A stretch of DNA of 64,000 nucleotides from Blastocatellia bacterium (GTDB lineage Bacteria; Acidobacteriota; Blastocatellia; UBA7656; JADIYM01): the NCBI GenBank assembly GCA_016705245.1, contig JADIYM010000005.1:139069-203068 (forward strand), written 5' to 3'. The notes beneath the pieces were generated by a model, which had not been told where the DNA came from, ran no database searches, and worked only from the letters and a program-made list of their open reading frames with translations. A program made the translations under genes and the position numbers. Numbering within the stretch: the stretch's first letter is position 1; each line of letters begins with the position of its first letter. Of the stretch, positions 3,633-63,840 are shown piece by piece.

Positions 3633-3706
3633 CCTCAGTGTCTCTGTGTGCGAAGCTCTTTTCGACCTTGAAGAGCTTCGCACACAGAGACACTGAGACA
3701 CAGAGA
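3633..3706. repeat. Palindromic heptamer-array repeat, family A (CACAGAG/CTCTGTG arrays flanking the GTGTGCGAAGC...GCTTCGCACAC stem)
   Basis: Near-perfect inverted repeat between pyk and purF: cctcagtgtctctgtgtgcgaagctctt...aagagcttcgcacacagagacactgag. Confidence 0.9.
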
Positions 3707-3723
3707 AGAGCTCCGAAGCCTCG

Positions 3724-5151
3724 TTACGCCAGGTCGCCGACGCGGTGCAGTTTCATCATTGTCGAGGCCGAAACGCCCTCGATGACGCCGGTCACGACGA
3801 CGACGGCCTCACCTACCTCGGCAACGCCCAGATCAACGAGGGACCGGTCGCCTCTCGCCAGCAGATCGTCCGTGCTGTCCGCAAACGATATCGCGTGCGC
3901 CTCGACGCCCCACACGGGAGCGAGTTGCCGGCACGCACGTTCGTGCGGCGCGAAAGCAATCAGTCGCTGGGAAGGTCGAAGTCCGGCGATGTGCTTCGCC
4001 ATCGATCCGTGCTCGGTCAGCACGACTATTGCGCGAGCGCCTATCTCCTCGGCAGCGAGCACGGAGGCCTCGGCTGCGGCGCGCGCGAACGATCCGGACT
4101 GCACGCCGGCAAATCGGCCAGGCGTCGGTTGCGGAGCGACGTCCGATTCCTCGGCGACACGGGCGATCCGGTCCATTGTCTGGATGGCCTCTACGGGGAA
4201 GCGGCCCACGGCTGTTTCCCCCGAAAGCATGACCGCGTCGGTGCCGTCGAAGATCGCGTTTGCGACATCGGACGCTTCGGCCCGCGTCGGTCGCGGATGC
4301 TCGATCATCGACTGCAGCATCTGGGTCGCGGTGATTACGAAGCGCTCAGAGCGAACGGCGTCGGCGATCATCCGTTTCTGGAGGATGGGAACGGCCTCGG
4401 CGGATGTTTCGACGCCCAGGTCGCCGCGAGCCACCATGATGCCATCGACGACACGCAGGATCTCACCGAGGTTCTCGACGGCTTCGGGTTTCTCAATCTT
4501 AGCGACGAGTGCAACGGACGGATCAGTCGCAGCGATCAGCTCGCGCGCCGTTCGGCAGTCGGCGGCCGAGCGTACGAACGAGAGGGCTACGAGGTCGACG
4601 CCCGCCGCGAGCGCCGCAGCGAGGTCCGCGCGATCCTTGTCGGTCACCGAAGCCACCGACAGTCGCACGCCAGGGAAATTGACACCCTTTCGTTCCGAGA
4701 GCAGTCCACCGTGTATGACCCGGGCGACGAGCGTCCCCGTTTCGATCGTCTCGACGCGGAGCTCGATGAGGCCGTCGTCGATGAGAATCCGGGCACCGGG
4801 GTGGATCTCCTCCGATAGACGGTCGTACGAGACCGAAATGGTATCTGCGGTGCCTTCGATGTCCCCGGCGACGAGGTGAATCAGCGAACCGTCCCTGAGC
4901 TCGACCGGTCCGCCGCCGACGAGGCGCCCGGTCCGGATCTTGGGCCCGCACAGGTCGGCCAGGACGGCGACATTGCGCCGCGCGGCGGCGGCGATCTCGC
5001 GAATGAGTGCGATGACCTCTGCGTGTTGCTCGCGCGTACCGTGAGAGAAGTTGATGCGCGCCACGTCCAGTCCCGCGTCCATGAGGGCGCGCAGGCGCTC
5101 GGGCGACTTGCTCGATGGGCCAATGGTGGCGACGATCTTTGTCTTGCGCAC
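3724..5151 (-). CDS. pyk: Pyruvate kinase
   Basis: 475 aa. MRKTKIVATIGPSS...NFSHG... is the canonical PK N-terminus. Confidence 0.95.
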   Translation of the reverse strand: MRKTKIVATIGPSSKSPERLRALMDAGLDVARINFSHGTREQHAEVIALIREIAAAARRNVAVLADLCGPKIRTGRLVGGGPVELRDGSLIHLVAGDIEGTADTISVSYDRLSEEIHPGARILIDDGLIELRVETIETGTLVARVIHGGLLSERKGVNFPGVRLSVASVTDKDRADLAAALAAGVDLVALSFVRSAADCRTARELIAATDPSVALVAKIEKPEAVENLGEILRVVDGIMVARGDLGVETSAEAVPILQKRMIADAVRSERFVITATQMLQSMIEHPRPTRAEASDVANAIFDGTDAVMLSGETAVGRFPVEAIQTMDRIARVAEESDVAPQPTPGRFAGVQSGSFARAAAEASVLAAEEIGARAIVVLTEHGSMAKHIAGLRPSQRLIAFAPHERACRQLAPVWGVEAHAISFADSTDDLLARGDRSLVDLGVAEVGEAVVVVTGVIEGVSASTMMKLHRVGDLA

Positions 5152-5203
5152 GCCGCGGAGTCTACTGGCGCGGCTGAAGTCCTGCCAGTGACTCTCCTTC
5201 TCC

Positions 5204-5292
5204 GCGCCTCAGTGTCTCAGTGTCTCTGCGTGCGAAGCTCCTCTCAGTGGTCGAAGCGTTTCGCACGCAGAGACACTGAGACACTGAGGCGC
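5204..5292. repeat. Palindromic heptamer-array repeat, family A
   Basis: gcgcctcagtgtctcagtgtctctgcgtgcgaagc...gcttcgcacgcagagacactgagacactgaggcgc, between the sensor kinase stop and the pyk start. Confidence 0.9.
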
Positions 5293-5339
5293 GGACGCGG
5301 ACGAGCGAGCCGATCCAGAAGTGTTTTCGAAGCACCTTC

Positions 5340-9310: not shown

Positions 9311-9398
9311 CATCAGTACCGCGCGCGGTAGCGCACGGGTAAACCGCGAGATCCGTCCGATCGAGCAGACCCGTGCGCTACCGCGTACGGTACTGTGA
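9311..9398. repeat. Family F inverted-repeat element (30-bp arms, 28-bp spacer)
   Basis: catcagtaccgcgcgcggtagcgcacgggt ... acccgtgcgctaccgcgtacggtactgtga, in the divergent intergenic region. Confidence 0.8.
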
Positions 9399-13780: not shown

Positions 13781-13871
13781 CGAGGGGCAGGGTCTCTGTG
13801 CCTCCGTGCCTCCGCGTCTCTGCGTGCGTAGCTCTTCAGACGCTGCGCACACAGAGACACGAAGGCACAGA
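13781..13871. repeat. Palindromic heptamer-array repeat, family A
   Basis: ctctgtgcctccgtgcctccgcgtctctgcgtgcgtagctcttcagacgctgcgcacacagagacacgaaggcacagagccacagag. Confidence 0.85.
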
Positions 13872-13946
13872 GCCACAGAGGCCTTTGCTCTGCAACGCCG
13901 CAACCGCTCGTGTATATTGCGCCTTTCCACCAACGGAGGGTTTGCG

Positions 13947-15314
13947 ATGGCGGGTGCGACAATCGACAAGATCGTTAGCCTGTGCAAGCGGCGCGGGTTC
14001 CTGTTCCAGGGCAGCGAGCTGTACGGCGGACTCCAGGGCACGTGGGACTACGGCCCCATGGGCGTCGAGCTCAAGAACAACGTCAAGCGCCTCTGGTGGC
14101 GCTCGAACGTCTACGAGCGCGACGACATGGAAGGCCTCGACGCCGCCATCCTCATGAACCGCCTCGTCCTGAAGTACTCCGGCCACGAGGACACCTTCTC
14201 GGATCCGCTCGTCGACTGCCGGAAGTGCAAGAAGCGCTTTCCGCGCCGACCAGATCGACGCCACCGAGAAGTGCGCCGAGGGCGGCACGCACGACTTCAC
14301 CGAGCCGCGCCCGTTCAACCTCATGTTCCGCACGCCGACGACGACATCGCTTACCTGCGCCCCGAAACCGCGCAGGGCATCTTCGTCAACTTCAAGAACG
14401 TGCTCGATTCGACGAACCGGAAGCTGCCGTTCGGCATCGCGCAGATCGGCAAGGCCTACCGGAACGAAATCACGCCGAAGAACTTCATCTTCCGCGTGCG
14501 CGAGTTCGAGCAGATGGAGATCGAATACTTCGTCAAACCTGGCGAGGACGACGAAACCCACGAACAGTGGATCGCCGACCGGATCAGCTGGTATCACCGC
14601 TACGGCATCAAGCCTGAGAACCTGCGCCAGCACGTCCAGGCGGCGGACGAGCTCGCGCACTACGCAAAGGCCTGCACGGACCTGCTATACCGGTTCTTTC
14701 CCGAACGCGAGGACGAGGACAAGCAGTACGAAGAGGTCGAGGGCATCGCGAACCGAACGGATTTCGACCTGACGTGCCACACGAAGGGCGGCGTCCTGCG
14801 TTTCGCCGACGGACGCGAGATCCCGAACGAGCACGCGGTCATGAAGCAGACGTACTTTGACGACGCGGCGAAGGTGCACCTGACGCCGTACGTCATCGAG
14901 CCGTCGGGCGGCGTTGACCGCATCACGCTCGCGTTCCTGATGGACGCCTACGAGGAGCAGACGCTCGAGGGCGGCAAGCAGCGCACGGTGCTGCACCTGC
15001 ACCCGGAGCTCTCTCCGGTGAAGGTCGCCGTCATTCCGCTCGCGCGCAACAAACCGGAAATCGTCGCGGTCGCGAAGCAGATCAAGAAGGACCTGCAGAG
15101 CACCGGCCAGCTCCGGACGATGTTCGACGACAGCGGCAACATCGGGAAGTGCTACGCGCGCCAGGATGAGATCGGGACGCCGTTCTGCGTGACCGTCGAT
15201 CACCAATCCCTTGAGGACAATGAGGTTACGATCCGAGATCGCGACTCGATGCAGCAGGAGCGCGTCGCGATCGATCGATTGAAGTCGTACTTTTTCGAGC
15301 GTCTGAGCCTCTAA
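13947..15314 (+). CDS. glyQS: Glycine--tRNA ligase (class II, homodimeric GlyRS), with two apparently compensating frameshifts at ~14249 and ~14338
   Basis: Start MAGATIDKIVSLCKRRGFLFQGSELYGGLQGTWDYGPMG with a GGAGG RBS. Between the two indels the GlyRS-like sequence RADQIDATEKCAEGGTHDFTEPRPFNLMFRTP is in the +1 frame. The rest is in frame (DDIAYLRPETAQGIFVNF...). Confidence 0.9.
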   Translation: MAGATIDKIVSLCKRRGFLFQGSELYGGLQGTWDYGPMGVELKNNVKRLWWRSNVYERDDMEGLDAAILMNRLVLKYSGHEDTFSDPLVDCRKCKKRFPRRPDRRHREVRRGRHARLHRAAPVQPHVPHADDDIAYLRPETAQGIFVNFKNVLDSTNRKLPFGIAQIGKAYRNEITPKNFIFRVREFEQMEIEYFVKPGEDDETHEQWIADRISWYHRYGIKPENLRQHVQAADELAHYAKACTDLLYRFFPEREDEDKQYEEVEGIANRTDFDLTCHTKGGVLRFADGREIPNEHAVMKQTYFDDAAKVHLTPYVIEPSGGVDRITLAFLMDAYEEQTLEGGKQRTVLHLHPELSPVKVAVIPLARNKPEIVAVAKQIKKDLQSTGQLRTMFDDSGNIGKCYARQDEIGTPFCVTVDHQSLEDNEVTIRDRDSMQQERVAIDRLKSYFFERLSL

Positions 15315-15714: not shown

Positions 15715-15720
15715 GGAGTT

Positions 15721-15830
15721 TCTGTGCCTCGGCGCCTCTGAGCCTCTGTGTGCGAAGCGTCTTCACGCGCTTGAAGACGCTTCGCACACAGAGGCTCAGA
15801 GGCGCCGAGGCACAGAGACCTCTCCCCGAT
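15721..15830. repeat. Palindromic heptamer-array repeat, family A
   Basis: tctgtgcctcggcgcctctgagcctctgtgtgcgaagcgtcttcacgcgcttgaagacgcttcgcacacagaggctcagaggcgccgaggcacaga. Confidence 0.9.
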
Positions 15831-15857: not shown

Positions 15858-15886
15858 TTGACAGCCCCGGGCACCCTCCCTATACT
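15858..15886 (+). promoter_or_regulatory. Consensus sigma70 promoter for the rplU-rpmA-obg operon
   Basis: TTGACA (15858-15863), an exact 17-bp spacer, then TATACT (15881-15886). A GGAGG RBS sits 8 nt before the GTG start of rplU. Confidence 0.6.
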
Positions 15887-20676: not shown

Positions 20677-21440
20677 CAAGCCGCGTCGCGGACGCTCTCG
20701 TAGCCGCGGCCTTTCCACAGGGCTGCCACGTCTGTCGGGGCGCCGTGTTGAGGCGCGAGTCGGGCGTGGCGTGCGAGGCCTGCTGGAACGATCCGGTTGC
20801 CACTCCTCTTTATTCGGGGAAGGCTCTGTGTGAACGATGCGGGCTTCCGGGAATGGGACGGTGCCTGACGTGTGCGCCGGCGGGCCTCGCTGTAGTCCGC
20901 TCGGTCGGCCAATACGCCGGAGCGCTCCGGGCGGTCCTCCTGGACGTGAAGCGGCGGCCGCGCGCTCCGGCTCGACTGGGCGATCTGCTCGCGGCGATGT
21001 GGATGGAATCGGATGCTCTACACGGTGTTGACGCGGTAGTTCCAGTGCCGCTCCATCCGGGTCGTCTCGCCGAACGCGGTCACAATCAGGCGGAGGTGCT
21101 TGCACGCGCCCTTTCGTCACGGACGGGGCTCTGTGTGGAACTGAACGCGCTCGCCCGTGTTCGCGCCGGAGCGCGGCGACGGTTCGGCTCCGGGCGCGAC
21201 GCGCGGGCAACGGATTCGGCGGATGCGTTTGCAGCGGCTACGCGGCTGGTTGCGGGAAGGCGACTGCTGCTGGTCGACGACGTCTTCACGACCGGGGCGA
21301 CACTTGGGGCGTGCGCCACGGCGCTGCTCGATGCCGGGGCGCTCGAATTGGTCGCCCCTCACTGTGGCGCGAGTGCGCATGGGTGCTGCCGGTTGATCCG
21401 GACTCCGTGGCTCGGTGACTCCGTGTCTCTGTGTGCGTAG
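20631..21440 (+). CDS. ComF family protein (double zinc ribbon plus phosphoribosyltransferase domain). The start overlaps the dksA 3' end and its exact position is uncertain.
   Basis: ...ALVAAAFPQGCHVCRG...CEACW... then the PRTase motif LLLVDDVFTTGATL. In-frame GTG at 20610 and TTG at 20631. Confidence 0.7.
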   Translation: MPGPAGTRASRGRRVASRVADALVAAAFPQGCHVCRGAVLRRESGVACEACWNDPVATPLYSGKALCERCGLPGMGRCLTCAPAGLAVVRSVGQYAGALRAVLLDVKRRPRAPARLGDLLAAMWMESDALHGVDAVVPVPLHPGRLAERGHNQAEVLARALSSRTGLCVELNALARVRAGARRRFGSGRDARATDSADAFAAATRLVAGRRLLLVDDVFTTGATLGACATALLDAGALELVAPHCGASAHGCCRLIRTPWLGDSVSLCA

Positions 21441-21500
21441 CTCCTAACGTGCCTGAAGAGCTTCGCACACAGAGACACGGAGACATGGAGTCACCGAGAA
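21401..21500. repeat. Palindromic heptamer-array repeat, family A
   Basis: gactccgtgtctctgtgtgcgtagctcctaacgtgcctgaagagcttcgcacacagagacacggagacatggagtcacc. Confidence 0.85.
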
Positions 21501-24738: not shown

Positions 24739-25551
24739 GTCAGACTGTGGAGATCCGGACTGCATGCAGGCGGATTTCCTGGTCGAGACGGGCGAGAGCG
24801 CGGAATGGAATTCCGGGAATGATGGCCGTCCCGGGGGCGTGAGCGAGAATCCGGGTGCGGCTCGGGCGATGTCGATGGTGCCTTTCGTCGTCGATCCGAT
24901 GTGCACCCGGTAATGAGACGGGTTACGGAAAGAGAGGGATTCTTCCATTCGGCAGCGGCGATTCGGCGATGCGGCCGACGGGAATCCTGGGCTTGCAGGT
25001 GGCCAACGGGGAGGCCACTGAAGCTGGAGTCGAACCGGCGCTGAGGTGCAGGGCGCCTGCAGCCGGCAGCGGTGTAGTTTCTTCCGGCAGAACCTTGCGT
25101 GATGGCATTGGCCCTGCTCCACAGGCCGTCGCCGACCCTAACGATCACGCAGGGCTGCCACCCGCCGGCGCGGCAGCATGGGCTGTCGCGCCGCCTGCCA
25201 TGGTGACGCGCCGTTATCACCCGATAGCTCGTTTTCACGGTCCGTCCGGCCAGGCCCCGTGGCGCCTTGCCGTCAGCAAGGGGCCACGATTGGCCCAGAA
25301 CCCCGAGCGCAGCGAGGGGCCGACTGCGATAACCACAGACCGCCGATGAACAGTTGGGGAAATCAACAGCCCAGGACAATTCCACAAACAACTCGGATCC
25401 CCCGGTCGGCCCCTCGCTTCGCTCTGAGCGTGTCCCACAGTTTGTGCTGGACACGGACAGAAGTGCAGCGCCGGTCACGACCGAGCGCTCGAGTTGGTGG
25501 AGGGGGACGCAACCGGATCGGGCGTGCGGTACAACCACTTGGCGGTAGATG

Positions 25552-25662
25552 TAAGGCCGGCCGCTCACTGCGTTCGCGGTTCTGGGACGTGCGGTCCGGA
25601 GAGCGGTCCCCGTCGGCCGCAGGCCGACCCAGAACCGCGAACGCAGTGAGCGGCCGGCCTTA
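25552..25662. repeat. Long near-perfect hairpin (35-bp arms, ~40-nt loop); family C (CCCAGAACC core)
   Basis: taaggccggccgctcactgcgttcgcggttctggg ... cccagaaccgcgaacgcagtgagcggccggcctta. Partial related copies are at 25295-25322 and 43485-43510. Confidence 0.85.
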
Positions 25663-26306
25663 CCGAGCGCACAACTGGTCCGCACTCCGGGGTACCGCGC
25701 CAACTCCGGCTGGTTCCAAGCCCGATAAAGATATTTGACACCTCATGCCGGATTTCTGCGTCCTTAAGGTGTATGCGTGACGTAGGTCGCCGGCTGAATA
25801 CGGACCGACCCCCTCAGCCGACAGCCGGCGCCTACATCCGCACGACTCCTGGGCTGCGGAGATGACGTCGATGTCCACGCCTGACGGCCCGATTTCTCCG
25901 TCTCGCTGCTTCGATCACCTCGATCGGCCCGCACTTCACTGGAGTCTCGGCTCGGCACCCGTCAACCTCACACTTCTCCACTCCATCCTGAGCCCGAACC
26001 TCACCCAGGAAGAAGAAGCGCTACTCCGGCGACTCTTCCTGGTGCGTATCCTCGAGCAGCGCGCCTCGGACTCCACACCAACAACGAGCGCCTGAACCAC
26101 CACGTTCAGTAGCACTTGCAGTTCTTGCCCGTCGTCGCGATGCTCTTAATGCGCGCCTCGGGCGAACTGATCGGTAGCGCAGGACATCGTATGACCGCTT
26201 GGTGTCGCGCAAGACCGCGCGTTGAGCGACGGCGAATCGTCGGGTCCAGCGTTTCGCGAATTTTCAATTAGCCGCGCCGGCGAAGACCGGCCGGGAGGTT
26301 CCAGCG

Positions 26307-27739: not shown

Positions 27740-27832
27740 TGGAGCCTCCGTGGCTCCGTGTCTCTGTGCGAAGCGTCAACGGAGCTTCGCACACAGAAAC
27801 ACGGAGGCACGGAGCCACGGAGATCGTCCGCC
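27740..27832. repeat. Palindromic heptamer-array repeat, family A
   Basis: gagcctccgtggctccgtgtctctgtgcgaagcgtcaacggagcttcgcacacagaaacacggaggcacggagccacggag. Confidence 0.85.
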
Positions 27833-32823: not shown

Positions 32824-32837
32824 GAAGACGTCGCCGT

Positions 32838-40309: not shown

Positions 40310-40420
40310 GAGTTTCTCGCAAAGACGCAAAGGGAAGACGCAAAGACGCAGAGTCCAGAAGTATTGGGCTCTGCGTCTTTGCGTCTTCCCTTTGCGTCTT
40401 TGCGAGAAACTGGGTCCTTC
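40310..40420. repeat. Palindromic heptamer-array repeat, family B (CGCAAAG/CTTTGCG arrays flanking GCGAGAAAC...)
   Basis: gtttctcgcaaagacgcaaagggaagacgcaaagacgcagag...ctctgcgtctttgcgtcttccctttgcgtctttgcgagaaac. Confidence 0.9.
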
Positions 40421-42157: not shown

Positions 42158-43423
42158 ATGGGACTTTTCTGGAAGCGCAAGAAGAAGGACGAAAACGACC
42201 GGCCGAGTCATTGGCCGCCGACGATTCTGTCGCCCGGCATTCCCGCTGCCGCACCCGCGTCTGTTGAAGCACCGCCGTTGGAACGGGTCGCCGCTCGCGA
42301 GATCAGTACCGCGAGCGATAGCGAGCGGGTGGTGATCGAATTGAGACCGTCGTTGCCGGAATCGGAAACGACAGGGCCCGTTCCTGCCGAGCCGCCGGTC
42401 CTTCGCAAGGTCGACATGAACTTCTCCTTCGGCGGGTACATCACGAAGGAGCCGACACCGGAAGAGATCGAGGAGCAGCAGCGCACGATCGTCGGACGGT
42501 TGAAGACGGCCGTCTCGTCGACGCGGCATACCCTCGTCGACCGGATCGACACAATCGTCCGCGGCAAGAAGGTCATCGACGCCGAGTTGCTCGAGGGAAT
42601 CGAGGAGGCGCTAATCAGCGCCGACATCGGTGTGCAGACGGCGCTCGAGATCATCGAGAACGCTCGAAAACGGGTGGCGCGCAACGAGCTGTCGAATCCG
42701 GAAGAGCTGCGACGCCTGATCCGCGAGCATCTGCTCGAGATGCTCGTGACGCCAAAGTCGCTTCAGAAGGGCACGGTCTCGTCCGAAGTCGACATCGACC
42801 CCGAGATCTCGCCGTACGTGATCATGGTCGTCGGCGTTAACGGTGTCGGAAAGACGACGACGATTGGAAAACTGGCTAACCGGATCCGCAGCGACGGCTA
42901 CGACGTGCTCATCTGCGCGGCGGACACGTTCCGCGCGGCGGCGAACGACCAGCTGGCTATCTGGGCCGAGCGCTCGGGCGTTCCTCTCATTCAGCAGAAA
43001 CCCGGGACCGATCCATCGGCCGTGCTATACGACTCGCTGGTGGCGGCGAAAGCGCGTGGAAGCGATGTGTTGATCGTGGATACTGCAGGCAGGCTGCACA
43101 CGAAGCAGAACCTGATGCAGGAGCTCGAGAAAATGCGGCGCGTGGCGGACCGTCAGGTGCCCGGCGCTCCGCACGAAGTGCTGCTCGTCATCGACGCCGT
43201 CACGGGTCAGAACGGCCTCGAGCAGGCGCGACAGTTCACCAAGTCAGCGCCGGTGACTGGACTCGTGCTGACGAAGCTCGACGGCACGGCGAAGGGCGGC
43301 ATCGTGGTAGCGATCGTCAACGAGCTCGGCGTACCGATTCGCTACGTCGGCATCGGGGAGCAGATTGACGACCTGATTGTTTTCGACGCCGAGCAGTACA
43401 TCGACAGCCTGTTCGAGGGCTGA
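42158..43423 (+). CDS. ftsY: Signal recognition particle receptor FtsY
   Basis: NG domain ([20 protein letters not shown]...DTAGR...[10 protein letters not shown]). A family F repeat copy sits in frame within the N-terminal acidic A-domain. Confidence 0.93.
42299..42330. repeat. Family F short repeat, single arm, in frame within the ftsY 5' region (encodes [12 protein letters not shown])
   Basis: gagatcagtaccgcgagcgatagcgagcgggt. Confidence 0.7.
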
Positions 43424-43599
43424 CCACGGATGAACTGGCCAACGGTGGGTGTTTGAACGGGCCGTGCGGACAGACCCCGCCAGACCCAGAACCCCGAGCG
43501 CAGCGGGAGCCGTGCGTGGGGCCGGAATGCGGCGCAGGCAGAGGTCGGTTTTGAGTGTCTGGAGCGTTGGGTGACCAGGGATGAACGCAGATGGTCGCG

Positions 43600-43630
43600 G
43601 ATCAGATCTGTGATCTGTGTGTATCTGTGG
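43600..43630. repeat. Tandem ATCTGTG-type heptamer cluster (family E)
   Basis: gatcagatctgtgatctgtgtgtatctgtgg. The related palindrome is at 56415-56510. Confidence 0.6.
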
Positions 43631-43653
43631 CCGCTTTTTTGTAAGCTGACAGC

Positions 43654-44778
43654 ATGAGTGACCTAGAGCGGTTTCGCGCGCTGTTTCCGATCACCCGGAA
43701 TCGGGTCTACATGAATCACGCGGCCATTGGGCCGCTGCCGACCACCGCCGTGAACCGGATGACCTCGGTCGCGCATTCGATCGCGATGACCGGCGACGAT
43801 GGCTGGTACGGGCGAATCGGCGAAATAGGCCGTGTGCGAAGTCTCGCCGCGCGATTGCTTCACGCGCGCGAGGAGCACGAGGTCGGCTTCGTCGCGAACA
43901 CGTCCGACGGCCTGTCGATCATCTCCGCCGGTCTCGACTGGCGCGAGGGCGATACGGTCGTAGGCGCCAATTGCGAATTCCCGTCGAACGCCTATCCGTG
44001 GATGCGCCTGTCGAATCACGGCGTGACGTTTCTGATGGCTGAAGAACGCGACGGCCGTGTCGACTTCGACGACCTCGTAGCGCTCGTGGACGAGCACACG
44101 CGCGTCGTCGCGCTCTCCTGGGTCCAGTACGCCAGCGGATTTCGCAGCGACCTCGAGCGAATCGGAAGGTTCTGCCGCGAGCGGGACATCCTGTTCGTTG
44201 TGGACGGCATTCAGGGACTCGGCGTCATTCCGATCGACGTCGAGCGCGACCACGTGGACGTGCTCGCCGCGTCGGCGCACAAGTGGCTCTGCGGATCGGA
44301 AGGCATCGGCTTGCTCTACATCTCTGATCGGGTCATCGACCGCATCGACCCGGTAAAGGTGGGGTGGACGTCGACGAAGGACTGGATCAAGTTCGGAGGA
44401 TACGACCTGAGATATCGCGATGGCGCCGAGCGCTTCGAGTGCGGAACGATGAATCCGTTCGGCATCGCGGCACTCGGCTCGTCGCTCGAGATCCTGCTCG
44501 AAGCGGGGGAATCGGACATCGAGCGACAGGTGAGAATCCTGACCGATCTGCTCGTCGTGGGATTGATGGATCGCGGCTATCGCGTGATCAGTTCTCGTAA
44601 GGACGGCGAGTGGTCGGGGATCGTCACGGCGACGCACGTTGATCAGAATCCGAACGAGCTGGTGCAGAGGCTCAAGCAACGGGGCGTGTCCGTGGCGGCG
44701 CGGGCTGGCCGGCTGCGGATCTCGCCGCACTTTTACAATACGGTCGACGAGGTGGATCAACTGCTGGCGGCTCTGTAG
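43654..44778 (+). CDS. Class V aminotransferase-fold PLP-dependent enzyme (cysteine desulfurase / selenocysteine lyase-like)
   Basis: 374 aa; PLP-lysine context SAHKWLCGSEG. Confidence 0.8.
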   Translation: MSDLERFRALFPITRNRVYMNHAAIGPLPTTAVNRMTSVAHSIAMTGDDGWYGRIGEIGRVRSLAARLLHAREEHEVGFVANTSDGLSIISAGLDWREGDTVVGANCEFPSNAYPWMRLSNHGVTFLMAEERDGRVDFDDLVALVDEHTRVVALSWVQYASGFRSDLERIGRFCRERDILFVVDGIQGLGVIPIDVERDHVDVLAASAHKWLCGSEGIGLLYISDRVIDRIDPVKVGWTSTKDWIKFGGYDLRYRDGAERFECGTMNPFGIAALGSSLEILLEAGESDIERQVRILTDLLVVGLMDRGYRVISSRKDGEWSGIVTATHVDQNPNELVQRLKQRGVSVAARAGRLRISPHFYNTVDEVDQLLAAL

Positions 44779-44788: not shown

Positions 44789-44912
44789 ACCCGCTCGCTA
44801 CCGATCGCGGTATTGATCTTTCGTGAGTCGCCTGCGAGCACGAGTGATCGGATTCCCGGTTCAACGGTCGCGCCGCGGGAGGATCAGTACCGCGAGCGGT
44901 AGCGAGCGGGTA
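44789..44912. repeat. Family F inverted-repeat element (30-bp arms, ~64-bp spacer)
   Basis: acccgctcgctaccgatcgcggtattgatc ... gatcagtaccgcgagcggtagcgagcgggt. Confidence 0.85.
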
Positions 44913-48309: not shown

Positions 48310-48412
48310 CGTCTCTGCGCTCTCCGTGCCTCTGTGACCCTGTGCCTCTGTCTGCGAAGCGTCTCGGGAGCTTCGCACACAGAGGCACGGAGTCACGGAG
48401 GCACAGAGCAAC
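48310..48412. repeat. Palindromic heptamer-array repeat, family A
   Basis: ctctgcgctctccgtgcctctgtgaccctgtgcctctgtctgcgaagcgtctcgggagcttcgcacacagaggcacggagtcacggaggcacagag. Confidence 0.85.
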
Positions 48413-51494: not shown

Positions 51495-51779
51495 ATTTAA
51501 GGACCGGGTCCTTTCGACGTAACCCGGCGACGGCAGACTGCATTCACTTGGCAACGGGCCAAAGGGCTCGGGGCAGTTCCCGGTGGCGGCGCCCGGTGCG
51601 TCGTCGACCGTCACGCTGGCGTGGTGGATCGGGAGCGGGCTCGAGCTTCTTGAGGTGCTGACTGCGGCCGGGTTCCCGACGACACCGTGACTTGGTCACG
51701 CTCACACGGTGTCATCGGGGATCCGGCCAGTTTTTTCGTGTGCGAGCACTCCGAGCCTCCGTGCGGCCCGTGCGAAGCT

Positions 51780-51950
51780 CTCCGGAGGCGGGGCACAGGG
51801 GGAGGCGGGGAGAAAAAGGGGGGGGGGGCCCCCGCCCCCTCCTCCCCCCCCCCCCCCCCCCGCCCGCCCCCCCCCCCGGCCCCGGGGGGGGGAGAAGGGG
51901 GGGGGGGGGGGGGGGGGGGGCGCCGGGGGGGGGGGCGATTCCGGGTGCTT
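51780..51950. repeat. Extreme homopolymer tract (poly-G / poly-C / poly-G blocks); probably a sequencing or assembly artefact
   Basis: ~170 bp of almost pure G or C runs (e.g. 22 consecutive C, then more than 25 G). Genes on both sides are truncated. Confidence 0.8.
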
Positions 51951-51959
51951 CTCCTGCCG

Positions 51960-52700
51960 GGAGTGACTCCGCCGCGCCCTCTCGGTGGCCGCCGTGTCCG
52001 GCGTTCGGGAAGAACCGGATTGTCACGTCCGGATTGCCGCCTTTTGCGAAGGCCGCGGCGAGCGCAGCCTGCGTCTCAGGCACGGGAATGTGACGGTCCT
52101 TGCCCCCCAGCAGATAGAGCACGGGTACCTTGATTCGCTCGACTACCGATGCGGGCTCATACGCGCAATGAACCCGATAGAAGAACCGCTGATCTTCGGT
52201 GAGCTCGGACGCCATCGGTGGCGCATCGGGCCACTTCATTCGGGCGAACCACGGCCGCGACCGGCCCCCAACGCCGAGCCCAGTGCGCGCGCGTGTTCCA
52301 GGGACGCGGAACCCACCTCGCGCGGCGCCCCCCTGCTCAGAGCTACCCCCGGGGGACATTCTGCTCAGTGGCGAAACCCGGGACCGATACGATCTTCACG
52401 TCAGGGCACCAGTTCCACCTGGCGATGCCCCAGACGCCAACCCTCGATGCGTCCACGTGGCCGCATGAATGCAATGGCTGCCCTGGCGTCCAGCTGCGCT
52501 CGAAGGTCCGGAGCCTCGGTAGGCGCCTTCCGACTCGCCGGTGCCGCGTTTGGGCGGACCGCAAATCCGTGGCGGCAACGGGTCGCCTGCGGCCCGTACA
52601 CTCGTCCTCGGCGGCGCCGGTGGCGGCTCGCGAGGTGCGCGCGCTCGCGCGGGCTCGGCTGCGTGGCGGGGCGCCGCGGTGCCGGTGCAGGCCTGGCTGC
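51960..52700 (-). pseudogene. Alpha/beta-hydrolase (S9 / dienelactone hydrolase-like) remnant, frameshifted and truncated at the homopolymer tract
   Basis: The C-terminal portion is readable (KVPVLYLLGGKDRHIPVPETQAALAAAFAKGGNPDVTIRFFPNAGHGG). The upstream part is split over other frames (…VDASRVGVWGIARW…). Confidence 0.45.
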
Positions 52701-53882: not shown

Positions 53883-53973
53883 GCACTCCGAGCCTCTGTG
53901 TCTTTGTGTCTCTGTGTGCGAAGCGTCCGAAGAGCTTCGCACACAGAGACACGGAGGCACCGAGCCACAGAGC
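53883..53973. repeat. Palindromic heptamer-array repeat, family A
   Basis: gcctctgtgtctttgtgtctctgtgtgcgaagcgtccgaagagcttcgcacacagagacacggaggcaccgagccacagag. Confidence 0.85.
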
Positions 53974-56340
53974 TCAGTTTCCGTCCCAGTTCCCCACGAT
54001 CGGCGTGACGTCCGGCGGTCCATACGAGAACACCATGTCGGCGCCCCCCGGACTGTTCGTGTTACGCAGGAACCACGCCCCCGACGAGGCCACGTAGATC
54101 CCGATGGTGTCGCGTCCATCGCCGTTCCAGTCGCCCGCCAGCGGGGTCGCACTCGACGGCCCGTACGTGAAAACGATGTCGGCCCCGCCGGGGCTGTTCG
54201 TGTTCTTCAGGAAAAACGCCGCCGTCGACGGGCTGTAGAGCCCGATCGAGTCCGTTCCGTTAGCGTCCCAGTCGCCCGTGATCGGTCGCCACCCGGCTGC
54301 GCCCGGCCCGAAGCTGAACACCAGGTCCGCACCGCCCGGCGCGTTCGTGTTCTTGAGGAAAAACGCGCCGCTAGCCGGATCGTAGAGGCCCACCGTGTCC
54401 GTGCCGTTTCCGTCCCAGTCGCCTGCGAGCGGCACCCAGCCGAGCCCGGCCGGTCCGTAGCTGAACAACGCGTCCGCGGATCCCGGTCCGTTCACGTTCT
54501 TGAGGAAGAATGCGCCCGTGGAAGGCTGATAGAGACCCGGAGACGCCACGCCGTCGCCGTTCCAGTCTGCCGCCAGCGGCACCAGCCCGGCGCCAGCGGC
54601 GCCGTACGTGAAGAGCGTGTCCGCAGGTCCAGGCGAGTTTCCGTTGCGCAGGAACCACGCGCCCGACGCAGGCACGTAGATACCAACCGTGTCCTTCGCC
54701 GCCGCCGGCGCGAGCACGAAAAGCGTGATCGACTGCGGCGGAACCGTCGTCGACAGCGTCGTCCCGACGTACCCGACGTCGGCCGGATGCGCAATCGAAT
54801 TCGCAGACGTGAGCTGCCAGACCTGCGCGACGCCCGTCCCCGCAAATCCGGCGAGCGAGATATTCACTGGCTGCACGCCAGCAGACTGCTTGTTGACGAC
54901 CATCACCGTCAGCGCGCCGTCACTCGAGCGTTCGCCGGCAAAAGCCGACAGGTTATCGGGATTCGGCACCGTTGCCGACACACTCGTGTCGCCGAAGCGT
55001 CCTCCGACTCCGTCGTAGTTCGTGTACATCTTGATGGACTTGTAGGTCGGCGTCGACGCGGCCGGCGTCGTCCACCGGCTCGCCATGTCGAGCCCCTCGC
55101 GGCCGAAGATCCCGAGGACGTCGGCCTGTGCCGTCGCGCCGTTGATGTGACCTTCGGCGCCCCAGTTGTACTCCGTGATGCCGGTCTTCGTGCCGGGGTA
55201 GTAGGTGTCCACCCAGCCCCTGATCCGGGGAATCAGCCTGACCGTGTCGGCGATCCACGTCTCGTCGACGTAGTTCGGGTCCCAGAGGCTTCGCGTCGAG
55301 CGGTTGCGCCGCGCCTGCATCGACGCTGACGTGTCGTCCGAGAACTCGCCGCCCTGCGGGTAATAATGCACCGTGAAGACGTCGAGGATCCGTCGGCCGG
55401 TGCTCTGGTTGTTGAGCTTGAGCTGGTTGAGGAGCCACGGCAGGTAGTCCCAGCCGCCGTGTGCCGCGCGGTCGGGCAGGTTCGACCATCCGTGCTGCGC
55501 GCCCCACTGCTGGTCGTACCCGCTGAAGAGGTAGCCGCTCCAGCCCCACTCCTCCGGACCGACGACGAGGGCTCCGGGATCCGTGTCCTTGATCATCGTC
55601 CCGTATTCGATCGTCTTGTCGCGGATCTCGTCCATCGTCGGTCCCGTCGGGTTCACGTCGCGATGGGTCGAAAACCAGATGCTGGGTTCGTTGTCGAGAA
55701 GGTAGTAACGTACGCCGCCGTTCGCCGCGGTGCCCTGCTGGGCGACGAGGTGCTGGACCCATCCGCGCTGGAAGTTGACGTCAGCTGGAACGCTCGCATC
55801 GTTCGGGTCGTTGCCGGTGACCGGCTGGTTATTGCTTGCGCGGATGCCGTTGCCGGCGTCGGGAAACCACTGCCAGTCGTTGCCGGTCTGTGCGCCGTAT
55901 TTCACGATCGAGAAGCTCGAGAGCTTCGTGCGGTTCGGTCCGAGCTTCGCGACCCAGCCGACGGTCGGAATCGTTATCATCGACTCGGCGCTCGCCGCCT
56001 GGTTGGCGTCGATGAACGCGTCGGCGTCGGCGCCGGCGGTCGAGCTCGAGTAGGCGATGCTCTGGTAGTACCAGTCGTTCGCTCGGTTGTCGGCGTTCTG
56101 CTGCCAGTTGTAGCGCGTCGTGTTGTTGCCGCCGCGGCGGTTCGACGGACAACGCAGGTCGGCGAGCGTTGCCGCGTCGGCGTACGCGAGGCCGTAGATG
56201 AGCGGATTTATGGGACGCCGGTTCGCGGACACATCGACGGCGATCGCGATCGCCGGATTGTCGGCGCGGACGGTCGGAAGCGGCGTGACGAGCGACGCGA
56301 CGAGCAGCGCCGCGAGAACCACAGGGAATGTTCTGTTCAT
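53974..56340 (-). CDS. Secreted glycoside hydrolase, GH44-like catalytic domain, followed by five tandem ~46-aa repeats (GDWxGxGxD...GAFFLKNTNxPGGAD)
   Basis: 788 aa; signal peptide; N-terminal region ...NTTRYNWQQN...YYLLDNEPSIWFSTHRDV.... The C-terminus has 5 near-identical repeats, also visible as DNA tandem repeats around 54000-54700. Confidence 0.6.
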   Translation of the reverse strand: MNRTFPVVLAALLVASLVTPLPTVRADNPAIAIAVDVSANRRPINPLIYGLAYADAATLADLRCPSNRRGGNNTTRYNWQQNADNRANDWYYQSIAYSSSTAGADADAFIDANQAASAESMITIPTVGWVAKLGPNRTKLSSFSIVKYGAQTGNDWQWFPDAGNGIRASNNQPVTGNDPNDASVPADVNFQRGWVQHLVAQQGTAANGGVRYYLLDNEPSIWFSTHRDVNPTGPTMDEIRDKTIEYGTMIKDTDPGALVVGPEEWGWSGYLFSGYDQQWGAQHGWSNLPDRAAHGGWDYLPWLLNQLKLNNQSTGRRILDVFTVHYYPQGGEFSDDTSASMQARRNRSTRSLWDPNYVDETWIADTVRLIPRIRGWVDTYYPGTKTGITEYNWGAEGHINGATAQADVLGIFGREGLDMASRWTTPAASTPTYKSIKMYTNYDGVGGRFGDTSVSATVPNPDNLSAFAGERSSDGALTVMVVNKQSAGVQPVNISLAGFAGTGVAQVWQLTSANSIAHPADVGYVGTTLSTTVPPQSITLFVLAPAAAKDTVGIYVPASGAWFLRNGNSPGPADTLFTYGAAGAGLVPLAADWNGDGVASPGLYQPSTGAFFLKNVNGPGSADALFSYGPAGLGWVPLAGDWDGNGTDTVGLYDPASGAFFLKNTNAPGGADLVFSFGPGAAGWRPITGDWDANGTDSIGLYSPSTAAFFLKNTNSPGGADIVFTYGPSSATPLAGDWNGDGRDTIGIYVASSGAWFLRNTNSPGGADMVFSYGPPDVTPIVGNWDGN

Positions 56341-56414: not shown

Positions 56415-56510
56415 ATCAAAGAAAAAGGACCACGGATTCACACGGATCAACACAGATCCGCAACTGTCTGCTGATCTGTGTTCATACTTCGTTTCCGCGT
56501 GAATCCGTGG
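56415..56510. repeat. Imperfect palindromic element, family E (CACGGATTCAC / GATCTGTG cores)
   Basis: aaggaccacggattcacacggatcaacacagatc...gatctgtgttcatacttcgtttccgcgtgaatccgtggccc, in the divergent promoter region between the GH44 gene and the hydrolase gene. Confidence 0.7.
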
Positions 56511-56553
56511 CCCTTCTTCTCATTTGCGCCAATCCCGTACAATCTCGAAAGTC

Positions 56554-57589: not shown

Positions 57590-57658
57590 TCCTGCGTCCT
57601 TTGCGCCTTTGCGCCTTTGCGCGAAATCTCACGCAAAGGCGCAAGGACGCAAAGCTGT
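57590..57658. repeat. Palindromic heptamer-array repeat, family B (short copy)
   Basis: cctgcgtcctttgcgcctttgcgcctttgcgcgaaatctcacgcaaaggcgcaaggacgcaaag. Confidence 0.8.
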
Positions 57659-58900: not shown

Positions 58901-59815
58901 ATGAACATCCTCATCACGGGCGGCACGGGATTCATCGGCGGACACATCCGCGACGCGCTGCTTCTGCGGCCGGAGCTCGGGCCCGACGCGCGCGTCCTGT
59001 GCATGACACGCGACCCGAAGGGGAAGACGCACGGCGATCCGCGAGTGTCGTTCGTCGCCGGCAACGTGCGCGACGCCGCGATGCTCGAGCACGCGACGGA
59101 CGGCGTCGACGTCGTCGTCCACTGCGTCCAGTTTCCGAATCACCCCGTCGAGGACGAGCGGAAAGGCCACACCTACCTCGAGGTGGACGCGCACGGAACG
59201 GAGCGGCTCGTCGCAGCGTGTCGGAAGAACGGTGTCAAGCGAATCGTCTACCTGTCCGGCGCGGGAACGTCGCCGGATCGCAAGGAGCCGTGGTTTCAGG
59301 CGAAGGTGATCGCCGAGCGCGCGGTGCGCGAGTCCGGCGCCGAATGGGTGATCCTGCGTCCGTCGTGGGTCTACGGGCCGGATGACCGCAGTCTCAACCG
59401 CTTCGTGACGTTCGTCCGGTACCTGCCGATCGTGCCGGTCATCGGCGACGGCACGAACAAGGTGCAGCCGATCGCGATCTGGGACGTGGCGGAGGCCGCG
59501 TCGGAATCGGTCTTCAGCGATGCCGCGACTAACCAGACGATCGAGCTCGGGGGACCCGAGGAACTGACGATGGACGAGATCATCGGCGTCTTGCAGAAAG
59601 TAATGGGAACGCACCGCCCGCTGCTCCATCAGCCGAAGGCGCTCATGAAGCTCGCCGTCTGGCCGCTTGCGATCCTGCCGACGCCGCCGCTTTCGCCCGA
59701 AGCGATCGACTTCATTCTCCAGGAAGCCCACGTCGACACCGAGCCCGCCCGACGCATCTTCGGCCGCGGTTTCACGCGCCTCGAGGACGGCCTGCGGAAG
59801 TACCTGGTGAGTTGA
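58901..59815 (+). CDS. NAD(P)-binding epimerase/dehydratase-like protein (complex I NDUFA9 / NmrA-like atypical SDR)
   Basis: MNILITGGTGFIGGHI Rossmann motif; 304 aa. Confidence 0.8.
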   Translation: MNILITGGTGFIGGHIRDALLLRPELGPDARVLCMTRDPKGKTHGDPRVSFVAGNVRDAAMLEHATDGVDVVVHCVQFPNHPVEDERKGHTYLEVDAHGTERLVAACRKNGVKRIVYLSGAGTSPDRKEPWFQAKVIAERAVRESGAEWVILRPSWVYGPDDRSLNRFVTFVRYLPIVPVIGDGTNKVQPIAIWDVAEAASESVFSDAATNQTIELGGPEELTMDEIIGVLQKVMGTHRPLLHQPKALMKLAVWPLAILPTPPLSPEAIDFILQEAHVDTEPARRIFGRGFTRLEDGLRKYLVS

Positions 59816-59930
59816 CAGGATTTCAGGATTTTCAGGATCAACAGGATTTCCTTTGGGTTGCTCGGACGCCTTCCGTCCTATCCACACTGAATCCTGTTAA
59901 TCCTGAAAATCCTGAAATCCTGTCTACTCT
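59813..59930. repeat. Palindromic heptamer-array repeat, family D (CAGGATT / AATCCTG arrays)
   Basis: gacaggatttcaggattttcaggatcaacaggatttcc...ctgaatcctgttaatcctgaaaatcctgaaatcctgtc. Confidence 0.9.
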
Positions 59931-61180: not shown

Positions 61181-61199
61181 CCGCGCGAGGATACGAGGA

Positions 61200-61273
61200 G
61201 AGTGGACAGGATTACAGGATTCACAGGATATTTTTCGTGGAATCCTGAGAATCCTGTAATCCTGTCCACTCTC
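61200..61273. repeat. Palindromic heptamer-array repeat, family D
   Basis: gtggacaggattacaggattcacaggata...gaatcctgagaatcctgtaatcctgtccactctc. Confidence 0.85.
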
Positions 61274-62408
61274 ATGTTTTTCGCGATCCTCATGCTCGTC
61301 CTCGCTGCACCGCCGCCGGCGGAGTACTTCCTCGCGGACATCGACAATCGCCCGGTGTTGATCGATCTGGAGGGCCGCGTCGTTCTCGAGCCCGAAGGCC
61401 GCGTGGGCGTGGGGTTACTCCGAAGGCATGTTCTGCTTCTCGGACGGCCAGCGAGTCGGCTTCATGGACTGGACGGGACGAGTCGTGGTGCCGCCGACGT
61501 ACGCCTATGCCGAAGGCTTCCGCGAGGGGTACGCGCGTGTGCAGCTACCCGAAAAGGGTGACACGGACCGCGAGCGCTGGGGATTCATCGACCGGACGGG
61601 ACGGATGGTGATCCCGGCTCGCTATTGGGCGACGTTCGACTTCCACGAGGGCGCGGCATTCGTTCTGAGCAACAAGGCCTCGACGTTCGTCGATACACAA
61701 GGCCGCACGATTCCAGCGGCGCCGTTCGGCTGGGCGGAGCACTTCAGCGAGGGTCTCGCGCCGGTCGAAAAGGACTATCGCTGGGGCTTCATCGACAAAC
61801 GCGGGAGGATGGCGATTCCGCAGGTCTTCGCACGGGCTAATGTATTTTCGGAGGGACTCGCGGCCGTGTCGATCTGGAACGACACCCTGGAAGCCCTCAA
61901 CGTGCCGATCGTCGGGTCGGGCTACATCGACGCGACGGGGAAGATGGTGATCCTGCCGAAGTTCTCGTCGACGGAGCCGTTTTCGTGCGGTCTCGGACTC
62001 GTTGCAGAAGGCTCGATGTACGTGCCGTCGAGGAACCGGTCTGGTCGCGAGCCGAGACTCGGAAAGGTGAGCTTCATCGATCGGACGGGGAAGACGGTTT
62101 TCGAGGTGACGGGGTCCGAGGGCGGGACGCCCGGAGGGTCACGCGCCACTGTGGTCCGCGTCGAGTCGTTCCGGGAGGATCTGGCGTACGTGGAATACGC
62201 GGACGGCCGGAAGGGCTTCCTGGACAAGACCGGCAAGCTGGCGATCGCGCTAGGTCCCGAATTCGAAGTGGCCCAGAGCTTCGATCGTGGCCTCGCGCGG
62301 GTGTCGCTCGCGCCGGCCGCCCCCGGCGGGCCCAGGTCCACCGGCTACATCAACAAGTCCGGCAAGCTCGTCTGGCCGAGGCCGAAGCCCGCGGTCACTC
62401 AACCCTGA
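61274..62408 (+). CDS. Secreted WG-repeat (KWG-like) protein; apparent frameshift near 61415
   Basis: Signal peptide MFFAILMLVLAAPPPA, then repeated ...GFIDRTGRMVIP...WGFIDKRGRMAIP...SFIDRTGKTVF... motifs. The N-terminal ~50 codons are in a different frame from the track ORF 61428..62408. Confidence 0.6.
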
Positions 62409-62411: not shown

Positions 62412-62525
62412 TCTTCCGTTGCGCCTTCGCGTCTGCCCTTGGCGTCTTTGCGAGAAACTCTTCGAACGTGAGAAGAGTTTCCCGCAAAGACGCCAAGGGC
62501 AGACGCAAAGGCGCAAAGAAGAAGA
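62412..62525. repeat. Palindromic heptamer-array repeat, family B
   Basis: gcgccttcgcgtctgcccttggcgtctttgcgagaaactcttcgaacgtgagaagagtttcccgcaaagacgccaagggcagacgcaaaggcgcaaag. Confidence 0.9.
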
Positions 62526-62872: not shown

Positions 62873-62875
62873 CTA

Positions 62876-62960: not shown

Positions 62961-62961
62961 G

Positions 62962-63492
62962 CCTATAACATCTCTCGATGGTAACGGACGCGTCGGCCGC
63001 CTCCTCATCACGTTCCTGCTGACCGAGCGAGGACTGCTGCAGAAACCAGTCTTGTACCTGTCTCACTACTTCAAGGGTCACCGGCAGGCATACTACGACC
63101 GGCTGCAGGCGGTCCGGGAACAGGGCGACTGGGAAGTCTGGCTCGAGTTCTTTCTTCGAGGGGTGATCGAGGTCAGCGTCGAAGCCGCCGAAACCGCGAG
63201 GTGCATTCTCCACCTGCGAGAGCGACATCGAGCCGCCATCACGGAACAATTGGCCAGAGCCGCTGGTAATGGCCATAAGGTTCTGGAGTCGCTGCTTGAC
63301 CGACCGATCGTGTCCGTAGCCGACGTCGAGCGCACGACCGGAACAACCTATGCGGCGGCGAACACTCTCGTGTCAAAGCTCGTGGAGCTCGGAATCCTCG
63401 TCGAAGTCACCGGCTACGCTCGCAATCGCCGGTTCCGTTACGAACCGTACGTGAAGCTGTTCACCGACGGCACGACCGACGACACAACGTAA
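62962..63492 (+). pseudogene. Fic/DOC family protein, N-terminally truncated (begins inside the Fic motif)
   Basis: In-frame translation ...PITSLDGNGRVGRLLITFLLTERGLLQKPVLYLSHYF... shows a degenerate HPFxDGNGRxxR core at the very 5' end, then the C-terminal wHTH part (…ESLLDRPIVSVADVERTTGTTYAAANTLVSKLVELGIL…). Confidence 0.65.
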
Positions 63493-63675
63493 TCGAGGAC
63501 GGACGAATTCTCAGACGCACGACCGATTTCGAACGTGGAACGTACGATTTCGGGTTCCACAGGCAACCCAGGTTCATCCTTCCTTATATGGAGGTATTCC
63601 ACAGGTGCGGAGAGCCCCCGGGCTGGCAATGAGGAGATTGTGGCCGGGTGGAGAGGCCCCTGGCTGAACCGTTGT

Positions 63676-63790
63676 GGCTCTGCGCCTTTGCGTCTGCCCT
63701 CTGCGTCTCTGCGAGAAACTGTTCTTCCGGAAGAACAGTTTCTCGCAGAGACGCAGAGGGCAGACGCAAAGGCGCAGAGCAGGACAAACC
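63676..63790. repeat. Palindromic heptamer-array repeat, family B
   Basis: ctctgcgcctttgcgtctgccctctgcgtctctgcgagaaactgttcttccggaagaacagtttctcgcagagacgcagagggcagacgcaaaggcgcagag. Confidence 0.9.
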
Positions 63791-63804
63791 GGACAGATTC
63801 CACC

Positions 63805-63840
63805 AATCCTCCCCGAATCCCTGTAATCCTGTCCACTCTC
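63805..63840. repeat. Family D half-element (AATCCTG array)
   Basis: aatcctccccgaatccctgtaatcctgtccactctc; the 3' 21-mer is identical to 61250-61270. Confidence 0.75.

Follow-up and report, generated by a model that had tools for sequence, protein, structure and literature searches.

The stretch analysed here (64,000 nucleotides, henceforth the window; positions 139,069 to 203,068 of contig JADIYM010000005.1, assembly GCA_016705245.1) belongs to an uncultured wastewater Blastocatellia bacterium (phylum Acidobacteriota), an organism also found in wastewater metagenomes. Its intergenic spacers carry four families of near-perfect inverted repeats of 60–140 bp, built from inverted arrays of short units and named here A, B, D and E, the last with a repeat period of 10. 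These families are clade-restricted and of defined length (an 87-bp master form), and lie at many unlinked intergenic sites, where they are inherited in place. At orthologous sites of different species other variants are found, sometimes with another core. We consider them to be, with fair though not full confidence, lineage-specific, non-coding dispersed palindromic repeats, functional analogues of the repetitive extragenic palindromes (REPs), of the bacterial interspersed mosaic elements (BIMEs) and hairpin-forming REP doublets (REPINs), or of MITEs (transposable elements of miniature size that carry inverted repeats).

Architecture of the repeat families

The core of family A (GTGTGCGAAGC, one mismatch allowed) matches the window 22 times against 2.2 expected, and arrays of at least two CTCNGNGN units occur 12 times in forward and 11 times in complementary orientation, compared with about 0.25 in shuffled sequences. 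The paired arrays of family B (5+5) and family D (2+2) have close to zero counterparts in shuffles. Each A, B or D array in the window is one arm of a long inverted repeat, and folded as RNA the hairpins reach -57 to -111 kcal/mol (z -9 to -18). A preliminary description, made from the letters of this DNA, had reported palindromic elements built from heptamer arrays, and with these counts the elements are real. The heptamers are as given there but their 7-bp period is not: Tandem Repeats Finder returns a period of 8 in A and B and of 8–9 in D, the unit being the heptamer plus one variable base.

In its canonical form family A is 87 bp long and reads 4x(CTCNGTGN)-GCGAAGC-9 nt-GCTTCGC-4x(NCACNGAG), with the loop TCTTCAGAC or its reverse complement; in copies with longer loops the stem is extended through GAAGAGCTTC. 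The hyper-stable mini-hairpin d(GCGAAGC) may account for this core. Among 46 copies from metagenome contigs, scored for arm units, loop and length, four-unit arms were found in 35 on the left and 36 on the right, a 9-nt loop in 25 and the exact length of 87 bp in 20. Positions 1–3, 5 and 7 of the family A unit show about 95% conservation; position 4 is close to saturation, with all four bases common, position 6 is mostly T and position 8 is variable.

The window holds ten intact copies of family A and an eleventh, corrupted, at 51749, and four copies of family B (CTTTGCGN units, core GCGAGAAAC), in line with the numbers first proposed (about ten and four); the three copies claimed for family D come down to two full ones and a half copy at 63815–63840, with CAGGATT units and well-defined ends (GAGAGTRGACAGGATT). 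A and B had been given as separate families, but these are probably diverged relatives and not independent families, because their unit patterns overlap (CTYTGCGN in B) and a central CTCTTC..GAAGAG hairpin is common to both. The fourth family, E, had not been separated before; it has about three copies in the window, with CACAGATNNN units at period 10 in inverted arrays.

Arrays and cores are also combined in other ways. CTCNGTG arrays surround another core, CGGCAACGCC..GGCGTTGCCG, in loci L089 and L050, and the different cores or outer stems found with these arrays number at least three. About 10% of copies are inside-out: their ends are formed by the core halves, which enclose the arrays and a unique loop of 33–54 nt. 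Two of these are in the window, A7 (32825–32967) and B1 (40311–40411), and others lie in L040 (5418–5530), L042 (2898–3001), L076 (4040–4144) and L077 (4962–5053). A7 consists of GCTTCGC and CACNGAG arrays, a loop, and CTCNGTG arrays and GCGAAGC, with an extra outer stem AAGRCGTSGCCGTACAGAG; the same type is seen in L040, L042 and L076. Such forms could have arisen at the junction of tandem copies or by circular permutation, or they could be a separate family.

Distribution among related genomes and metagenomes

The families are present in at least five related assemblies. In the metagenome-assembled genomes (MAGs) CAZXLQ01 and CAZQBW01, copies of A and B are 80–92% identical to those of the window, compared with about 68% for the only coding DNA shared, and further copies are found in JBGATQ01 and JBPOHL01. 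A scan of genome contigs with a 15-nt pattern gave at least 87 matches, mostly due to chance as the pattern is too short; among the matches listed, the informative ones were those two MAGs and a partial resemblance in a Verrucomicrobiota MAG (L073). A gapped pattern specific to the A core picked out 57 metagenome contigs, drawn from roughly a dozen datasets, and had no match among viral contigs. Loci picked for family A alone also contained B and D copies, including five further D copies at 3' ends. Paired arrays were absent from 460 kb of unrelated genomes and from L092, a 21-kb syntenic locus of a relative with 82% identity in pyk. By comparison, the pyruvate kinase of the window is identical to MBK6314298.1, encoded on a 344-kb contig of a Blastocatellia bacterium MAG that has a sister MAG with a 4.06-Mb contig, and pyk of CAZQBW01 is 91% identical to that of the window. 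Both CAZXLQ01 and CAZQBW01 (loci L002–L082) have 64% GC and carry the title 'uncultured Clostridia bacterium', which appears to be a mislabelling.

In same-species short-read assemblies, A1, A4, A8, A10 and A11 are places where contigs begin, stop or change partner: L088 begins at the centre of A4, L114 begins inside A8, and the alignment of L141 stops exactly at 53972, the end of A10. Breaks of this kind are expected of a genome-wide repeat. The REP/MITE-like character that had been suggested for the elements is thus borne out by their being dispersed, clade-restricted, extragenic, of defined length, present in both orientations and assembly-breaking, with no match in Rfam at gathering thresholds. 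Copies in relatives and metagenomes also show that they are not confined to this locus, and the Rfam search connects them to no known family. REP/MITE-type repeats have been studied thoroughly in Proteobacteria and a small number of further groups; in the papers, Rfam and the collections searched, full texts included, no equivalent repeats are described for Acidobacteriota or Blastocatellia, nor inverted arrays of octamers or heptamers.

Given the long-read origin of this MAG, we considered whether the palindromes might be assembly or sequencing artefacts such as fold-back chimeras. One copy does look like this: A11 (51749–51830) has a correct beginning but gives way to a polyC/polyG tract, which a short-read assembly does not have. 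But the same copies recur with identical or nearly identical bases in short-read assemblies made independently and in JGI/ENA metagenomes, which refutes the idea for intact copies, and the chance that it explains the families is negligible. At 51828–51936 the window has about 50 C followed by about 52 G, a 'palindrome' of its own, where the same-species short-read contig L150 (compared over window positions 51750–52700) has an intact 87-bp A copy, a hydrolase gene and an AraC gene. Over this region window and contig are 86.8% identical; the window is short of about 1.2 kb, and the two genes are degraded in it or absent. In all likelihood the tract arose as an error of long-read assembly or base calling that was seeded at the family A palindrome.

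Genomic context of the elements

Spacers were defined with our own gene calls, based on codon usage. Of 59 scored in the window, 15 contain an A, B or D element, about half of the spacers with room for one, and a long palindrome of any kind is present in 21; short operon-internal spacers are mostly without an element, and the first impression that nearly every intergenic spacer carries one was an overstatement. A larger set of 82 copies was scored for context. Co-directional genes flank 46 of them, convergent genes 20 and divergent genes 16; 66 are behind a stop codon. The distance from the upstream stop to the element has a median of 18 nt (interquartile range 10–28), in tandem and convergent settings alike, and that from the element to the next start a median of 83 nt; in divergent spacers it is about 81 nt to either start. 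Occupancy of convergent spacers (12 of 25) is about double that of tandem ones (32 of 149).

The whole convergent gap is filled by A10 (53886–53972, 87 bp, between the stops at 53882 on the forward and 53974 on the reverse strand), by B3 (62419–62516, 10 nt from each stop, 62408 forward and 62527 reverse) and by D1 (59809–59929, CAGGATT units at period 8–9), which overlaps both stops (59815 forward, 59924 reverse), as well as by four of the five D copies in metagenome loci. Other elements follow a single stop. A2 (5200–5295) is 44 nt past that of a histidine kinase (5340, reverse) and upstream of pyk; A6 (27746–27822, three units per arm) is 33 nt past the stop at 27712 and upstream of a TonB-dependent receptor gene; A8 (36092–36190) is 16–35 nt past the stop at 36075; A9 (48313–48408, canonical 87-bp core at 48322–48408) is 18 nt past the stop at 48427 (reverse) and upstream of a STAS gene. 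The inside-out A7 begins 1 nt past the stop at 32823 and B1 15 nt past that at 40295. B2 (57593–57654) is a short copy 14–19 nt past the stop at 57579. A5 (21403–21498), upstream of a gene at 21579, covers the last 37 nt or so of a ComF-like open reading frame (ORF; stop 21440), and a copy of family E (973–1026) lies at the purM stop (1017, reverse), with an orthologous copy in L090 (4281–4334). B4 (63677–63780) is a perfect 104-bp palindrome without a loop.

In tandem settings, promoter-like sequence tends to come after the element. A1 (3626–3705, three units per arm) is placed between the pyk stop (3724, reverse) and the purF promoter and 5' untranslated region (5'UTR), and A3 (13794–13880, canonical, 87 bp) is 18 nt past the stop at 13775, with a TATATT -10-like box and proS following; the -10-like boxes after both are conserved. 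A4 (15720–15817) is 6 nt past a cytochrome c stop (15714), and 41 nt beyond it, ahead of rplU, is the promoter-like TTGACA-17-TATACT (15858–15886; 11 of 12 positions matched).

Divergent spacers in the window hold D2 (61198–61273), 17 nt upstream of the start at 61180 (reverse) and abutting the ATG at 61274, and an E copy (56420–56520) between a GH44 gene and a gene at 56554. The half copy D3 (63815–63840, forward, right arm only) precedes the ATG of a molybdopterin-oxidoreductase-like gene by about 30 nt. Four divergent cases were confirmed with Pfam, between genes for RimK-like and FHA-TPR proteins, disulphide isomerase and radical SAM, LysR and PALP, and GMC oxidoreductase and PepSY.

This context is what would be expected if the elements were foremost host terminators or insulators, not mobile, alike through a shared requirement and homogenised by gene conversion or recurrent slippage. 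Elements sit tight behind stops and fill convergent gaps exactly, and different species keep the sites although the sequence at them turns over. The first 20 kb of the window were scanned for T-run terminators: hairpins with a T-run are fewer there than by chance (6 versus 12 expected), none of them at a gene end and none at an element. Several 3' ends that lack a repeat have unique GC-rich hairpins of their own. One hairpin with a T6 end does exist elsewhere (51666–51734, hairpin 51666–51728), about 170 nt past the HPPK stop. Against this reading, which we regard as rather unlikely, are the roughly 20% of copies in divergent promoter regions, the lack of a G:U signature (see below), the relative at 82% pyk identity that has no copy at the same sites, and the 87-bp master form, near-invariant unit bases and common loop TCTTCAGAC, which point to common descent and not convergence. 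The terminator or transcript stabiliser role put forward in the preliminary description is plausible for about 80% of copies, which are a median of 18 nt past a stop with a promoter often next, and not for the divergent fifth; nor is a T-run found directly after any element. Because about a fifth of copies are in genuine divergent promoter regions, termination cannot be the only reason for the existence of these elements, which are not simply terminators.

Two genes show the effect of the elements on annotation. The longest ORFs called for purF (2113–3693) and proS (13806–15314) run through A1 and A3, respectively, with true starts at 3537 and at about 13947; the false N-terminal extension of purF had been suspected from the start, and the true one (MFDKLR, giving 474 aa as in relatives) is conserved in three of them. 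A WG-repeat gene (61274–61561 and 61428–62408) seems to start at the ATG directly after D2, with a signal-peptide-like beginning in another frame than the main ORF, that is, a frameshift or sequencing error. False ORF extensions, breaks in short-read assemblies and corruption of a long-read one are practical consequences of the repeats that bear on the quality of wastewater and soil MAGs.

Correlation between the two arms

Pairing between arms was assessed in 33 ungapped 87-nt copies, with 500 shuffles of their 3' partners. The hairpin pairs 90.5% of cells compared with 87.6% for shuffled partners, and pairing falls to 28–55% when the register is slid. Cells in which both partners are changed number 60 against 28 expected, a value that none of the 500 shuffles reached; the two arms of a copy are therefore correlated beyond their shared consensus. 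In the long-read window, perfect or near-perfect palindromes (A4 with 48/48 complementary positions, B4 with 52/52, B1 with 46/47), which differ from one another in their unit variants, coexist with copies having 5–8 mismatches, a pattern that occasional templating of one arm on the other would fit. Distances between a copy's own arms and those of the nearest other copy do not discriminate, as the variable positions have few states.

Turnover and mode of spread

Strains that are 98.5–99.8% identical share all copies, at the same sites and with 0–2 substitutions or a 2-nt indel; copies are therefore not hypermutable. Between species the picture is one of turnover. The site behind the pyk stop has three versions of the element in three genomes: in the window A1, with three units per arm and a GCGAAGC core (identical in the short-read contig L106); in L091 four units, other variable bases and another loop; in L089 and L090 the same arrays with a different core. 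L092, which is without elements at all shared sites, has unrelated sequence there, and the adjoining purF promoter and 5'UTR are conserved in all four. The core replacement seen at the pyk site recurs in the pair L050/L065. These differences look like exchange or replacement among copies and not like the slow divergence of a single insertion.

From these patterns we propose that copies would be spread or homogenised by DNA-level copying that leaves no duplication, through gene conversion between copies or a transposition that recognises hairpins; the obvious analogue is a REPIN-like mechanism of hairpin recognition. Arm-to-arm templating would help to keep the arms alike, and copies would persist only where promoters are unharmed, which would leave most of them 10–28 nt behind a stop. 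Once transcribed, the hairpin might act as a bidirectional terminator without a U-tract, as a block to 3' exonucleases, or both, and it might insulate the promoter that usually comes next.

Several observations weigh against such a mobile, REP-like repeat. Alignment of 29 copies from the window and two related MAGs revealed no target-site duplication, target motif or conserved flank. The mobilising gene, sought among ORFs flanked by two copies, was not there: these are ordinary genes (pyk, those for a zinc-ribbon membrane protein, a DUF4190 protein, CobW and similar), with no transposase. No clean pair of filled and empty orthologous sites was seen; L091 is without A3 but has also lost the adjacent DNA, in a larger deletion. 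At the variable unit positions about 55–65% of arm pairs are complementary, a low value that may be in part short-read assembly noise. G:U is not preferred over C:A, either on the sense strand (19 versus 32 arm mismatches) or when copies are oriented by their loop, on either strand (38 versus 56), so that nothing points to selection on one particular RNA strand. No U-tract follows the hairpins, termination being suggested by their position, and the 16 of 82 copies in divergent spacers (the four Pfam-confirmed cases among them) cannot terminate the neighbouring genes. Finally, the density of about one copy per 4 kb is an extrapolation from 64 kb and selected loci and not a genome-wide count; if it does hold genome-wide, the elements would fill a large share of the intergenic DNA.

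No RAYT, the transposase associated with REPs, was found in the DNA examined, nor did about 450 kb of DNA from the clade show a parent insertion sequence (IS) sharing the elements' ends, a genome-wide search not having been made. The 418-aa gene flanked by D1 and D2 was examined as a RAYT-like arrangement and rejected, its product being a zinc-ribbon membrane protein.

Genes for small structured RNAs (regulatory RNAs or processed hairpin RNAs), one of the functions offered at the outset, are a very improbable explanation. The hairpins are very stable and matches to microRNA precursors exist in Rfam; but these appear at about half the threshold and equally on both strands, as for any generic long hairpin, and none reaches gathering thresholds. 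Nor do copies have a promoter of their own or a consistent orientation: the asymmetric loop is found in both orientations relative to the neighbouring genes without bias, and G:U mismatches are not in excess over C:A on either strand.

The same lack of strand and orientation bias and of RNA wobble would suit protein-binding arrays, another of the functions offered at the outset: they would be bound at the DNA level by a protein that reads an 8-bp register in both arms, with different families serving paralogous proteins (nucleoid-associated, gyrase-like, a recombinase or transposase, or a regulator). Five of the eight unit positions are about 95% conserved even though pairing alone would allow covariation, the number of units is fixed at 4+4, the CTCNGTG arrays appear with at least three different cores or outer stems, and D2 and D3 are just upstream of starts. 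No candidate protein has been identified, though, an 8-bp period puts successive sites on different faces of the helix, and conservation of this kind would also arise if copying were limited to intact copies. As a full account, binding arrays seem to us improbable, and they are compatible with the dispersed-repeat reading rather than exclusive of it. We keep a sequence-specific protein partner open, either a mobilising enzyme or an array-binding protein, because of the five conserved unit positions, the fixed 4+4 units and the reuse of arrays with different cores.

A more far-reaching proposal, possible but doubtful in our judgement, is that the four families are an undescribed modular, self-symmetrising class of palindromic repeats, in which a sequence-specific factor reads the 8-nt (or 10-nt) units in both arms, in a system distinct from RAYT/REPIN and from IS-derived MITEs. 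The factor could be a hairpin- or cruciform-processing nuclease or recombinase, or an array-binding protein, and may copy or convert elements between sites, swap cores and make the inside-out (circularly permuted) forms. The fixed 4+4 units, interchangeable cores and inside-out forms together make these elements a tractable case for how palindromes are copied and kept symmetric.

Other repeats in the window

The window contains further repeats besides the copies described above. A separate palindrome family with GAGCGGTAGCGAGCG, which includes GTAG and looks more like the classical GTAG-type REPs, occurs at 9314–9395 and 44789–44911, and elsewhere in L091 (5122–5207), L043 (5474–5624), L022 (5461–5549) and L064 (4694–4759); the copy at 9314 is conserved in the orthologous divergent spacer of L091. 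In the composite spacer at 43423–43654, which has a T6 end, period-10 CACAGAT-type arms appear to be split by a nested GTAG-type palindrome, and one repeat may have inserted into another. A 113-bp palindrome at 25551–25663 (39-nt arms, 97% complementary), within a 1.8-kb stretch without a confident gene call, has an 88% identical copy in MAG CAZXLQ01 (L064, 3873–4002) and represents another dispersed family.

In a low-GC contig of the Verrucomicrobiota MAG JAYEIY01 (L073, 6630–6680 and 6814–6860) there are repeats beginning CTCTGTGTGCGAAGCACTTTGAAGTGCGTCGC. They are similar to the A core and also to a further palindrome family in the Blastocatellia MAG (GCGAAGCGCTTTGGAGTGCGGCGAGAATCGCC, L089, 2770–2887); the resemblance could reflect distant relatedness or chance. 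The GH44 glycoside-hydrolase gene contains a 147-bp tandem repeat (54188–54591; 2.2–2.7 copies, 70–76% identity), a repeated coding module that matches L020, L038 and L065 at about 68% identity.

Comparison with known repeat systems

The octamer-array palindromes resemble REP/MITE-type repeats, and their modular design was not found described in the literature searched. Integron attC sites have R'' and R' core sites (RYYYAAC...GTTRRRY) and stand at the 3' end of cassettes that lack a promoter and share one orientation; we rejected this identity, since the elements here have the ends CTCNGTG.../...CACNGAG and housekeeping neighbours (pyk, purF, proS, rplU, obg) in mixed orientation. CRISPR repeats and small RNAs were likewise rejected on architecture and context.

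Hairpins without a U-tract have been proposed as 'I-shaped' terminators for high-GC bacteria. Like intrinsic terminators, our elements are GC-rich hairpins 10–30 nt past a stop that could serve both genes of a convergent pair, but their stems are 30–50 bp long compared with 5–15 bp, no U-tract is present, they form shared repeat families, and a fifth of the copies are behind no gene. In a phylum whose transcription signals are barely known, they allow long U-tract-less hairpins to be tested as terminators.

The short tandemly repeated repetitive (STRR) sequences of cyanobacteria and the TAACTGA repeats of Beggiatoaceae are contiguous direct repeats of period 7, mostly just upstream of starts (PMC4679880). 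As in the elements described here, a 7-nt motif recurs several times over in arrays between genes, at numerous loci, and no mechanism is known for their spread. The period here is 8–10, however, and the arrays are always inverted pairs around a core hairpin.

Bacterial MITEs (Correia/NEMIS, ERIC, RUP, RPE) are likewise small, non-coding, dispersed inverted repeats that fold into hairpins, break assemblies and can terminate or stabilise transcripts. They differ in that no target-site duplication, internal unique segment, related IS with the same ends or clean presence/absence pair was seen here.

A REP unit is an imperfect palindrome of 20–40 nt with a conserved head of the GTAG/CGTC type (PMC3733652). 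The A arm (4x CTCNGTGN plus GCGAAGC) is not self-complementary and has no such head, and tandem 8-nt arrays around interchangeable cores, with inside-out versions, take the place of the REP unit. In other respects the RAYT-associated REP, BIME and REPIN repeats of Proteobacteria are a close parallel: extragenic, abundant, lineage-specific and inherited in place, they too form long symmetric hairpins (about 70–110 nt), leave no target-site duplication, are enriched at 3' ends and between convergent genes, and consist of a master form with variants, with several families in one genome. As in a REPIN, two inverted arms here form one long hairpin (60–140 nt), and all copies are intergenic.

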